Positions 21,001 through 24,000 of a DNA stretch of 64,000 nucleotides are shown piece after piece (positions within the stretch are counted from its first letter, which is position 1; each line of letters starts with the position of its first letter). Position numbers: made by a program. Origin of the DNA: Pseudomonadota bacterium (GTDB taxonomy: Bacteria > Bdellovibrionota_B > Oligoflexia > Oligoflexales > RGVZ01); NCBI GenBank assembly GCA_041178085.1, contig JBEGVZ010000085.1, positions 32,001 to 96,000 of the forward strand, in the 5' to 3' direction.

Positions 21001-24000
21001 GTGCTGTCGCGGGTCATCCCCGAAGCCTAACACGACCCGGAAAAAACAGGCCTGCCAAAATGAAGGCCGTTCCAAACAGGGCGGTTTGCCCGGCCGATTG
21101 GACGAACGTCAATTTTAGTGCCGAACCCCGCCTCTATATCATGAAGAAGGTTGGTGGAAGCTGTGACCAGGCGCAGCATTGGCCATTGCTCCAGCCAGCC
21201 TGAGACCGCCTCGCTGGCGGCTGCTGAGGGGTGGGAACCGGCCGTGACAAGTCCCACACTGAGCTGGGGACCGAATGCAGCAGGCACCGGCCCGTCATGA
21301 ACAGACAGCGCAGCGATTCCGGGGGCTGGAGTCGCTAGTCCACGGCTCAGTAGACCTGACGCATGAAGGGGTGACAGAGCCTCCCGCCAAAAGCGCCACC
21401 AGGAAGTTTCCATGAGTCGGGCGCAAACTTGTTCGACTTCTGATTTACCTGTTCCCTGCGGCACAACGATTCCAAGCATGCGGCTGGCCATGCACCCGTC
21501 TTGCATCAGGGCGCAGGTATCGGCAAGGATCTGGTCCATCAGGTCAGGAAGTTCCGCCCACGTCACGATGCTTGCGGTAAGGGCTCCCCCGTGACCGGCG
21601 ACATGAAGCGATGGCCCGGCAGCCCTTCGGATTTCCTCTACCGTCTGGTCGTCGCCGAAAACAAGCAGGGCGGCAAATCCGGGCAGGCCTTCTGCACCGA
21701 TGCGGAAGCTTGAATCCACGGTGTCGATCTGCCAGCCAGCAGTCGCCAGGCGGCGAAGGAGCCTTCGCGTGAAAGAATCTTGTCGTTCCTGCCCCTTTGG
21801 CAGGCGCACGGTCGGCTCCAAGCCTGCCGCAAGAGCCAGCGTGAGGGGCATCGGCAGGGCCATGGGATGCGTGTTTGGGGGGATGAGCAGCAGGCGAGGC
21901 GGCTGGCCTTGAACGCTGGCATGACGTGAGATGTCGAGCGCGCCCGACCTGTGGACGGCAGCCGCCAATATGTCCGGGGTCAGCGTTTTGAGTCCCCCGA
22001 GGGCGTCTTCCAAGGCGAGCTGGGCTGCCCGCGTCGAGCCAATTTCCCGCGACAGTGATTCAATTGCCTCGGGTGACTCCAGAAAGCTGACCAGTGCTCC
22101 GACAATTCCGTGAGACCGGATCCTCACCGGACGCCGGGTTAGAGTGTGATATTCCAAATGGCTTTGCGGCTGCGGCGGGGCGACGATTTTCGCTCTGACT
22201 TCTTCCGCCATCAGGGAACACCCTTTCAAGGGAGCCATTCTGGCGCGCCCAAGAAGAGAAAAAGTTCCGTTATTATAGATCGTTACAACGTCTTCTGTGA
22301 TGACCGGCGCAGGCAGGTCAATCCGGTTCAGGTCGACAATTCCAAGCAGGCCCGTTCCGGTGAGGCCGCCTTCGTAGCAAAGCCCTCCGGCGTCCCGGCG
22401 GACATTATTGACGACGAAAGGTATCGCGCCCCTTTGAAAGGTGAGCCGACGTTCATCGCCGGAAAAGGCGGTGTAGGCCGCCGAAGCCAACTCACTCATG
22501 CCGTATTCGGAGATAACGGACTTCTCCGGAATACCAAAGCCGCGGGCAAGGGCTTCCACCAGCCACGCCTCGCTAACGTCTCGAGTTTTGCCTTTGGTGC
22601 CGCCAGTGAAGATCACGAAACTACCCTTAGGCAGGCGCGGCAGCCGGCCCCGGTCAAGCAGGGGGATCAGGTGGAACGCCGTGCCGAAGACCCAAAGTGG
22701 CCTCTCCCCCAGGACTTTCATGGCAAGGGCAAGGCCGGCGTCCTCTTCTGGCCGGCAGTAGGCGACCTGTGTTTTTTCGCCCAACCAGTGGACCATTGCC
22801 GCAAGGCTGCTCGTTGGCCATTCTTGCGGCGGAGGGACCAGGCTGATGCCGGGCAGCTTCTGGCCGGCTCCCTCAGGCAGGTCGCCAAGCCGTTCCAGGG
22901 CCGAAAAAAAACCCGAGGCGATGGCTTCGCGATAGGCTGCAAGCCCCCCATCACTGAAACGCGATTTTGAACGACCCTGGGCGCTGGTACCGCTGGATTC
23001 AAAGACCTTTGCAGAAGCCACTGGGCCAAGGTCCAAAACCCTGAAACCATTTATCTTTATGCCCCACAACAGACCTTCAAGTCCGGTCACCGTCAGACGC
23101 GGCAAATCGTCGTGGATGGCCACCGTCCCCTTGGCACCATGGCGGACAAGGAATTCTGCGGGCAGATAAGGTTTGTCGTAGGTTGGCATAGGGGTTATAA
23201 AAGTTGGATTACCTATGAGCAGCGAATACTTTGTAAAACTTGACCATTTCGAAGGTCCGCTTGACCTTCTGCTGCACCTTATCCGTGTGCATGAAATCGA
23301 TATTTTCGACATCGACATCTTCAAGTTGTCGACGGAATACCTTAATTACCTCAGGCTGCTCAACTTCGACGACCTTGGCGACGCCGGCGCTTTTATTGAG
23401 ATGGCGGCAACTCTGATCGAAATCAAGTCCCGGATGCTTCTACCCCAGGACGAGCGCAAGGTCACCAACGAGGACGGCGAAGAAGAAGATCCCGTCCAGG
23501 CCCTGCAGCAACGCCTGATCCAGTACGAGGCCATTCGCAAGGCGGCAGCTGCGCTTGCCCTGCGCCCCCAGGTGGGCGTTGAAATCCAGACCAACTGGGA
23601 ATGGCGCCGCCTGGAAGAAGTGTTCAAGGATGTGGAGGCACCCCTCAAGGGCGACGCCGCGATGCTCGTTGTCCTTTACGAGCAAATGCTCCAGTCGCTC
23701 GGTGATCGCAAGGTGACGCGCGTTCAGGCGCAGCGCCACATGGTCAGCCTTGAAGAGACGATCGAAAAAATGGCGAAGGAAGTGGAAGTTCTTCGCTTTG
23801 CGTTGTTCCAAGGTTTCTACAACCGCTTCCAGTCGCGTTATGAGCTGGTGGTCCATATCCTTGCCGTTCTTGAACTTGCTCGTCAGTTCAAGATGAAGTT
23901 TTACCAGCAGGATTTGATGGGCCCTCTGTGGATTTATCAAACCGATTGCAACGAAGCCGACTTGCCGTTTCACGAGCAGAACGTGCAGCAAACAGGGCGC

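Follow-up and report, generated by a model that had tools for sequence, protein, structure and literature searches.

The closest solved relatives of the protein described here are the two subunits of the fatty acid reductase of Photobacterium phosphoreum (7XC6). In the available text of PMC9157457, LuxC and LuxE form a LuxC4-LuxE4 complex that converts an acid through an adenylate and a thioester to an aldehyde; the K238A variant of LuxE is inactive, and LuxC residues 454-488 form an arm that closes a long acyl cleft. Two further proteins can be likened to ours by description only. RfbN (WbeN, VC0251) of Vibrio cholerae O1 serves O-antigen synthesis, and AS87_03730 of Riemerella anatipestifer is, in the accessible part of PMC4772473, a non-luminous LuxE homologue of no assigned function, but a stand-alone protein.

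The conversion of 7-carboxy-7-deazaguanine (CDG) to preQ1 is, in the portions available of published accounts (PMC11130926, PMC13740343, PMC13602947), carried out in one way only, by QueC plus QueF, which activate the carboxylate with ATP, pass through an amide and a nitrile, and reduce with NAD(P)H. The QueC and QueF genes underlie the genome-wide mapping of which bacteria make and which use queuosine, and Capnocytophaga appears there as a precursor consumer (PMC11130926, in part). We found no published description of a LuxE/LuxC-type route from CDG to preQ1 in a search whose scope did not include the 2024 MMBR review of 7-deazaguanines (PMC10966956), where one may be mentioned.

Architecture of the fusion protein

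The DNA analysed is a stretch of 64,000 nucleotides (the window) from a member of the Oligoflexia. It contains an open reading frame that the genome-wide survey's note had reported as a LuxE-LuxC fusion. The reading frame proved real: in a single chain of 720 residues, an adenylating half of LuxE type is fused to a reductase half of LuxC type, and the catalytic residues of both are kept. Its features are:

21027..23189, minus strand: LuxE-LuxC fusion gene, 720 aa, ATG at 23189; proposed 7-carboxy-7-deazaguanine reductase (predicted)
22200..23108, minus strand: LuxE-type half, residues 28-330; ANL adenylate-forming fold without the C-terminal subdomain
22986..22997, minus strand: SSGT phosphate-binding loop, residues 65-68, aligned to LuxE TSSGT; S65, S66 and G67 in 71/71 sequences
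22593..22595, minus strand: K199, equivalent of LuxE K238; TGGTKG aligned to LuxE GGGWKT; invariant (71/71)
22245..22247, minus strand: R315, equivalent of LuxE R355 by profile alignment; invariant (71/71)
22218..22220, minus strand: C324 in KGCS, equivalent of LuxE C364 on the acyl-carrying arm; invariant (71/71)
21036..22157, minus strand: LuxC-type half, residues about 345-718; ALDH fold
21492..21494, minus strand: C566, equivalent of the LuxC catalytic C296; QrGC aligned to LuxC QQAC; invariant (71/71)

The single protein has no Pfam or NCBIfam match, and phmmer against the PDB returned chance matches only. A profile of the fusion family matched LuxE (7xc6_E) at 1.9e-10 and LuxC (7xc6_A) at 0.013, and the predicted structure of the full protein has a pLDDT of 89.1. 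S65-S66-G67, T195-G196-G197, K199, E228-Y229, D300, R315, G323-C324 and G565-C566 are invariant in the alignment of 71 sequences, which bears out the earlier claim that both thioester cysteines are retained. An S127-S128-x-x-x-M132 stretch is invariant as well. These domains and catalytic residues are direct observations.

For the LuxE-type half, a profile built together with its unfused relatives matched 7xc6_E at 1.9e-32 over residues 33-369. This half has the ANL adenylation fold of LuxE (PF04443), lacks the C-terminal subdomain, and carries the equivalents of Lys238, Arg355 and the KGC cysteine Cys364 in all 71 sequences. The window protein itself stays below the curated Pfam and NCBIfam cut-offs; weak LuxE matches were obtained for 6 of 15 homologues, and one member of family f19 exceeds the Pfam cut-off (32.5 against 24.9). 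As in LuxE, the cysteine sits on a flexible arm, modelled with low confidence around C324 (pLDDT < 50 at 321-337 and 339-343). The nearest solved folds of the N-terminal half (model pLDDT 92.4) are PaaK-family aryl-acid ligases (6siw, ClxA 9s3l and PaaK1 2y27; Z 18.0-18.3, with rmsd 3.8 over 253 aligned residues at Z 18.3). These ligases act on small aromatic acids, but have a C-terminal subdomain of their own and use CoA or other acceptors; since LuxE itself is also closest to PaaK1, the likeness names no substrate. Foldseek did not list 7xc6_E for this half, which is neutral, as that entry has just 118 resolved residues.

The reductase half has the ALDH fold of LuxC (PF05893) with the Cys296 equivalent in place, and its top VIA structure match is LuxC 7xc6_A (Z 23.1, rmsd 3.8, 348 aligned residues, chain range 32-450), at about 9% structure-based identity. 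The alignment ends at about LuxC residue 450, so the 454-488 oligomerisation arm, which closes the L-shaped acyl cleft, is missing; most of the 71 proteins stop a few residues past the HxG motif. A further difference from LuxC-LuxE, as far as PMC9157457 was available, is that one chain takes the place of a complex.

The note had doubted whether members of the other order were fused. All 14 family f19 loci that were fetched are single open reading frames of 672-740 aa scoring on both halves, a partly circular result because these loci sit in the profile; the same holds for L130, L135, L137 and L147, four f19-type loci that the profile does not include. A few members of the class are split into two reading frames (L010/L077, L119). 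The record of the cultured Oligoflexus tunisiensis Shr3 (L088) has a fusion of 675 aa. The search behind the note had shown no such natural fusion, yet LuxE and LuxC occur as single chains elsewhere, as seen in the RfbN annotation and in Atlas clusters, and fusions as such are already known. The orphan family comprises at least 1,444 clusters at E < 1e-30, fused and unfused forms counted together.

Neighbourhood of the fusion gene

The genes around the fusion gene in the window are:

23215..24114, plus strand: scpA (Pfam PF02616), divergent, 25 bp from the fusion start; synteny only, outside the pathway
20289..21017, minus strand: SprT-like metalloprotease gene, 9 bp downstream of the fusion; in 29/81 loci
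19256..20449, minus strand: M14 zinc peptidase gene, between the fusion and queA; in 35/81 loci
16637..17818, minus strand: queA (SAM:tRNA ribosyltransferase-isomerase), downstream of the fusion; Pfam PF02547 at 5.5e-105

A functional link to scpAB, as suggested by the note, did not hold: scpA was present in 55 of 81 distinct loci and lay on the opposite strand in every one, and its position is taken by lspA in 19 loci (f19) and by cmoB in four. The scpAB neighbourhood is head-to-head synteny confined to most families within one order and does not reflect co-transcription. A link to lipoprotein acylation through lspA was dropped because lspA, too, is divergent and occurs there in f19 alone. 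The SprT-like metalloprotease gene is probably co-transcribed with the fusion gene, its role being unrelated. In all 26 loci showing queA, it lies downstream of the fusion on the same strand, with 2.4 kb or less between the gene centres in 10. Neither a preQ1 riboswitch nor any Rfam family other than tRNA was detected in the window and four partner loci. The annotated neighbours also bear out that the fusion stands without a luxAB operon, the sole luciferase-family gene being on another contig; LuxD had no match in the genome, and the luxAB plus luxD operon of a Lux fatty acid reductase system was not found.

Among the unfused relatives, a QueD-like gene directly follows luxC in 14 of 25 loci from outside the Oligoflexia, and four of four tested exceed the QueD cut-off. 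The orders queD-queE-luxE-luxC (G302), queE-luxE (G376, G412) and aminotransferase-luxE-luxC (G143) were also found. Other LuxE types, namely that of glycan clusters and the second system of the present genome, form a separate long branch, and one of them co-occurs with QueC (G403). On one rival reading, the fusion tailors acyl groups of a surface glycan, as RfbN or the luxE-luxC pairs of flagellar glycosylation islands do. RfbN is a comparable single-chain protein by description, not by sequence (PMC9915646 and PMC4772473, both in part), and luxE-luxC pairs do occur in glycan clusters (PMC7874193, in part; loci L315-L317 and L319). We consider this reading extremely unlikely: no glycan genes were present among the annotated neighbour families, and glycan-cluster LuxE stands apart from the queuosine-linked clade (branch support 100; 69-110 against 247-320 bits). 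Longer proteins were also sought with the other LuxE fragment of this genome, and none turned up, which is weak evidence.

Queuosine genes and their distribution

Encoded in the genome (96% complete) are QueE, QueA, QueG, a tandem QueD-like protein and two each of FolE and Tgt, both Tgt having the bacterial Cys/Val positions; the four GUN tRNAs are all present too. The QueD-like protein scores 49.5 against a curated cut-off of 89, and QueE 282.5 against 300. The set for de novo queuosine synthesis is thus kept except for QueC and QueF, for which neither HMM nor tblastn searches of the genome gave a match. The fusion protein is itself no member of QueC (PF06508) or QueF (PF14489), having no Pfam match and different folds. 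Directly behind queE, and translationally coupled to it, lies a gene for a class-III PLP aminotransferase (G000:C114:48036-49298).

The gene distributions and operon links that follow were likewise observed directly, and counts overstate independence because the genomes are kin. The fusion was matched in 117 of the 131 genomes of the class, in agreement with its reported near-universality. Full-length QueC (197-247 bits) occurs in seven of the 131, each of them one of the 14 genomes that lack the fusion, and the two were never found together (0/117). Full QueF occurs in 10 genomes, nine of them among those 14; in the tenth (G013) the QueF contig has 51% GC, against 34-35% in three other contigs of the bin. 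The thresholds for canonical QueC and QueF were chosen after the scores were seen. They leave out weak PF06508 matches (≤30 bits, nearly all N-terminal only) and weak PF14489 matches at positions 1-61, of which two were checked and are FolE.

QueE was matched in 120 genomes, of which 109 have the fusion, nine have QueF instead, and two have neither (53% and 83% complete). It went unmatched in eight of the 117 fusion genomes (66-94% complete) and is also absent from three of the 14 without the fusion. In families f19 and f13, QueE is matched weakly (E 1e-5 to 1e-14, under NCBIfam cut-offs), and a QueD-family match is absent from three of four f13 genomes. The aminotransferase was found in 113 of the 131 genomes, 112 of which have the fusion (112/117). 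It adjoins queE in 11 of 11 further loci, and within family f3 in five of six readable fusion genomes, against none of nine QueF genomes without the fusion.

A similar division was seen in Bacteroidota. No genome among the 201 sampled has both the unfused LuxE clade (87 genomes) and canonical QueC (100 genomes); of the 14 with neither, 13 are also without QueE. The figure of 87 is a count of the LuxE clade, with the LuxC partner outside the genome-wide count. The QueC exclusion covers the 131 class and 201 Bacteroidota genomes; 145 Verrucomicrobiota genomes without the clade lie outside the QueC search. All 87 have QueE, and one aminotransferase (>350 bits, next 286) marks exactly these genomes; QueF was not found in the five of them that were checked. 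The LuxE-clade/QueC split in Bacteroidota may follow few events. Weaker QueC-like matches co-occur with the clade in five genomes (G098, G023, G335, G380, G388), those of G098 and G023 fitting defence-type QueC models. In a quick tree, the aminotransferase of Oligoflexia forms one clade with that heading a luxE-luxC-queD operon in Verrucomicrobiota (SH-aLRT 98), and the Bacteroidota enzyme falls in a different one.

Proposed function

We think it highly likely that the fusion protein reduces CDG to its aldehyde and that the aminotransferase turns this aldehyde into preQ1, bypassing QueC and QueF. Substrate, product, cofactor and order of steps are proposed by analogy with LuxCE chemistry (PMC9157457, in part). 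The QueE product CDG would be adenylated with ATP by the LuxE half (K199, R315) and then bound to C324 as a thioester. Carried by the flexible arm, it would reach C566 in the LuxC half, and reduction with NAD(P)H would there release 7-formyl-7-deazaguanine. The class-III PLP aminotransferase would convert this compound to preQ1, from which Tgt, QueA and QueG would make queuosine in tRNA. The pair would thus replace QueC and QueF, sharing with them, as far as the accounts cited above were available, the start, the end, ATP activation and NAD(P)H reduction; the folds are unrelated, however, with a thioester and an aldehyde predicted instead of an amide and a nitrile, nitrogen coming from the PLP aminotransferase, and no preQ0 being formed.

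The note had read the domains correctly; its housekeeping role in making fatty aldehydes or acyl-thioesters does not fit the gene distribution, which matches where QueC and QueF are lacking and where QueE, QueA and a dedicated aminotransferase occur. Reduction of fatty acids to long-chain aldehydes, alcohols or amines as a housekeeping lipid step, with preQ1 salvaged, is in our judgement very unlikely. It would agree with the kinship to LuxE and LuxC and their retained catalytic residues, with a YhhQ-like salvage transporter (C85:126741-127214) through which preQ1 could be imported, and with cascades from fatty acids to amines by a reductase and a transaminase (PMC9594044, in part). However, it leaves unexplained the QueC exclusion in two phyla and the operon links to queD and queE, and gives no reason to keep QueE and QueD without QueC. 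The missing LuxC arm and the lack of LuxD also count for CDG as the substrate; unlike the Lux system, the fusion is tied to queD, queE and the aminotransferase, and it probably makes no fatty aldehyde.

The genomic links all point to CDG metabolism, but cannot themselves name the product. The enzyme might form another 7-deazaguanine intermediate (an alcohol, an amide or a non-queuosine base), or need an extra enzyme before preQ1. The differing aminotransferases of the phyla and a second fused paralogue with its C-terminal motif lost in two genomes (L035, L037) would suit such chemistry. It is nevertheless very unlikely, as QueA, QueG and preQ1-type Tgt, all needing preQ1, are retained, and an aldehyde followed by transamination is the shortest route using exactly the co-distributed enzymes.

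Reduction of CDG with subsequent transamination is likely to represent another widespread way of making preQ1 de novo, the default in Oligoflexia (fused) and in about four of ten sampled Bacteroidota, so that LuxC/LuxE would have a sister clade in core metabolism that acts on a nucleobase. If so, queuosine maps would be in error for a large part of the Bacteroidota and nearly all Oligoflexia, many bacteria now called queuosine-precursor scavengers would be producers, the orphan family would gain a function, and a CoA- and carrier-free heteroaromatic-acid reductase would be a new type of biocatalyst. Deletion of AS87_03730 in R. anatipestifer slowed growth and up-regulated 19 genes, 12 of them translation-related, according to the accessible part of PMC4772473; these effects would fit a tRNA-modification defect.

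Architecture and neighbourhood of the fused gene

The 720-aa ORF described in the genome-wide survey's note is a real gene, with matches in 117 of the 131 genomes of the class, and the same protein occurs in records named Oligoflexales, Oligoflexus and Silvanigrella.

21027-23189, minus strand: fusion of a LuxE-type adenylating half and a LuxC-type reductase half, 720 aa

Searched alone, the protein gave no match in Pfam or NCBIfam. The profile of a 71-row alignment matched LuxE (7xc6_E) at 1.9e-10 and LuxC (7xc6_A) at 0.013. LuxE K238, R355 and C364 and LuxC C296, named as catalytic in the available text of PMC9157457, correspond to K199, R315, C324 and C566 of the fusion, all in invariant columns. 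The domain assignment made in the survey was correct. The full model (pLDDT 89.1; confidence is low at residues 321-343, around C324) had LuxC as its best VIA match (Z 23.1, rmsd 3.8, 348 aligned; next match 21.5). This alignment ends at LuxC residue 450, and the arm 454-488, which closes the long acyl cleft of LuxC, is therefore absent. The N-half modelled alone (pLDDT 92.4) resembled ANL adenylating enzymes, with PaaK-family ligases ranking first.

The fusion had been read as a housekeeping fatty-aldehyde or acyl-thioester enzyme associated with scpAB. The kinship with LuxE and LuxC is in keeping with fatty-aldehyde synthesis, but we judge this assignment wrong and the activity quite improbable, as distribution and operons point to reduction of 7-carboxy-7-deazaguanine (CDG), the QueE product. 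LuxD was not found in the source genome. The scpAB link did not hold up either: among 81 distinct loci, scpA is divergent, on the opposite strand, in all 55 that have it, and in its place are lspA (19 loci) or cmoB (4). queA lies on the same strand downstream of the fusion in 26 of 26 loci showing it, and was also found in five of five additional genomes checked. We consider it very likely that the fusion is the fused form of a CDG reductase acting, together with a dedicated aminotransferase, in place of QueC and QueF, the textbook enzymes from CDG to preQ1.

Other features of the window were the following; the 555-aa ORF is kept at its place in several families and had no Pfam or NCBIfam match.

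17597-19264, plus strand: 555-aa ORF between queA and an M14 peptidase gene
31285-31443 and 60985-61068: tRNA-Lys(TTT), tRNA-Glu(TTC) and tRNA-Leu(TAG) genes

The fusion is split at the linker into two adjacent ORFs in L010/L054 (genome G094; 373 + 394 aa) and in L119 (309 + 290 aa), representing either natural fission or assembly error. Two genomes of f19, a family of another order, each have an additional fused paralogue amid different neighbours (L035:8936-10951 in G123; L037:8752-10767 in G130), with both cysteines kept and the C-terminal HxG motif lost.

Queuosine genes of the source genome

Neither HMM searches nor tblastn with five queries found QueC or QueF in the source genome (G000), which is 96% complete. 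It encodes two FolE, a QueE (282.5 bits vs a cut-off of 300), QueA (in the window), QueG, four GUN tRNAs, a YhhQ-like salvage transporter and the genes listed below.

G000:C114:48036-49984 (L178:6037-7985): queE and a class-III aminotransferase gene
G000:C46:7204-8142 (L179:4205-5143): tandem QueD/PTPS-like protein, 313 aa
G000:C87:9819-11870 and G000:C8:14846-15796: two tgt genes of bacterial type

The stop of queE overlaps the start of the 421-aa aminotransferase, indicating translational coupling; this enzyme, which passed no NCBIfam cut-off, is the candidate for preQ1 formation. The tandem protein scored 49.5 bits, far under the QueD cut-off, is kept across the class and is possibly a divergent QueD type. 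Both Tgt have DxC and GLxVGE motifs, placed by pattern without alignment to Z. mobilis Tgt, that fit the bacterial Cys158/Val233 pattern (available text of PMC3660597). One tgt lies within a 684-codon open frame, longer than usual for Tgt, and the other is truncated by a contig end.

Distribution of the fusion, QueC, QueF and the aminotransferase

After removal of weak N-terminal matches, full-length QueC was found in 7 of the 131 class genomes, every one among the 14 without the fusion, and full QueF in 10, nine of them among those 14; the genomes are kin and the counts not independent. In the tenth (G013), the QueF gene lies on a contig (L184, G013:C8) with a GC content of 0.51 vs 0.34-0.35 for three other contigs of the bin, probably a contamination. 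QueC-like genes of two fusion genomes, G098 (L182, G098:C70:173-3523) and G023 (L183, G023:C115), matched the PADLOC defence-type QueC. That of G098 is accompanied by TGT-like, N-glycosylase and TIR (ThsB-like) genes, a set resembling type IV CBASS accessory genes; no cyclase was seen on the short contig C70.

QueE was present in 120 genomes: 109 with the fusion, 9 with QueF instead and 2 incomplete ones with neither. Three genomes (G011, G012, G097) lacked the fusion, QueC, QueF and QueE, and the search gave no QueE match in 8 fusion genomes.

The aminotransferase was found in 82 genomes of the source order (E < 1e-55), with an orthologue in 31 of 33 f19 genomes; 112 of these 113 genomes also carry the fusion and none carries QueC. 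It directly follows queE in all of the best 12 loci and in five of six readable fusion genomes of family f3, and in none of the nine QueF genomes without the fusion; f19 pairs queE with tandem queD instead. Both states occur in different genera of f3, and the pattern is therefore not only a split between orders.

Among 201 Bacteroidota genomes, 87 carry the queuosine-linked LuxE clade (E < 1e-70; one weak other-type match, G403, left out) and 103 a QueC match, 100 of which exceed 150 bits; the overlap consists of three weak QueC matches (85-118 bits). Fourteen genomes have neither, 13 of them without QueE, which is present in all 87 clade carriers. An aminotransferase chosen as present in three carriers and missing from two QueC genomes exceeded 350 bits in exactly these 87 genomes (next best 286). 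No QueF was found in five carriers checked. In Verrucomicrobiota the clade occurs in 6 of 151 genomes, and none of these six, to which the QueC search was confined, has full QueC.

Unfused relatives and the proposed route

The nearest unfused relatives belong to Verrucomicrobiota, Bacteroidota, Armatimonadota and Methylomirabilota, with a stand-alone LuxE at 25 of 25 loci. A 120-aa gene directly follows luxC in 14 of them, and all four tested exceeded the QueD cut-off. The gene order is aminotransferase-luxE-luxC-queD in Verrucomicrobiota L151, queD-queE-luxE-luxC in Bacteroidota G302 and queE-luxE in G376 and G412. In a quick tree, the L151 aminotransferase and those of Oligoflexia formed one clade (SH-aLRT 98).

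Given the observed architecture, residues, distributions and operons, CDG and ATP would yield CDG-AMP via K199 and R315, followed by a thioester on C324 that would move to C566. There, an NAD(P)H hydride would free 7-formyl-7-deazaguanine, which transamination would convert to preQ1; the single chain would keep the thioester hand-over internal. A different deazaguanine product is judged quite improbable. The aldehyde is a known compound, which QueF mutants are reported to leak (available text of PMC13740343). QueC/QueF is the only route given in the available parts of PMC13329287, PMC10516641, PMC13602947, PMC13740343 and PMC11130926, and no publication among the matches listed in the non-subscription literature ties LuxE/LuxC homologues to queuosine. 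The parts of the route are of known kinds, and the route itself is undescribed in the searchable literature; the window contributes an exclusion test across the class and across a phylum, the aminotransferase as partner, and a single chain that could serve as the construct for experiment. According to the available text of PMC4772473, genes raised upon deletion of a flavobacterial luxE homologue were mostly for translation (12 of 19), which is weak and indirect support.

LuxE also occurs in glycan clusters, and glycan acylation would be a further role, although a highly improbable one for the fusion. In a FastTree phylogeny of 50 LuxE halves (42 of the 78 rows of alignment A4 used; long branches flagged), the 23 fused rows clustered together (support 93), and the glycan-cluster LuxE shared one long branch (support 100) with the second LuxE of the source genome, apart from every fused and queuosine-linked unfused half. 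This second, unrelated LuxE/LuxC system (G000:C42:57970-59683, L072; G000:C49:5236-8543, L071) comprises a 411-aa ORF, which we read as GNAT-like though it had no NCBIfam match, a luxE split over two contig ends with an overlap of 121 bases, and a LuxC–PaaK-like ligase fusion of 871 aa. In G435 (L318), luxE likewise has beside it a LuxC-first gene, of 837 aa.
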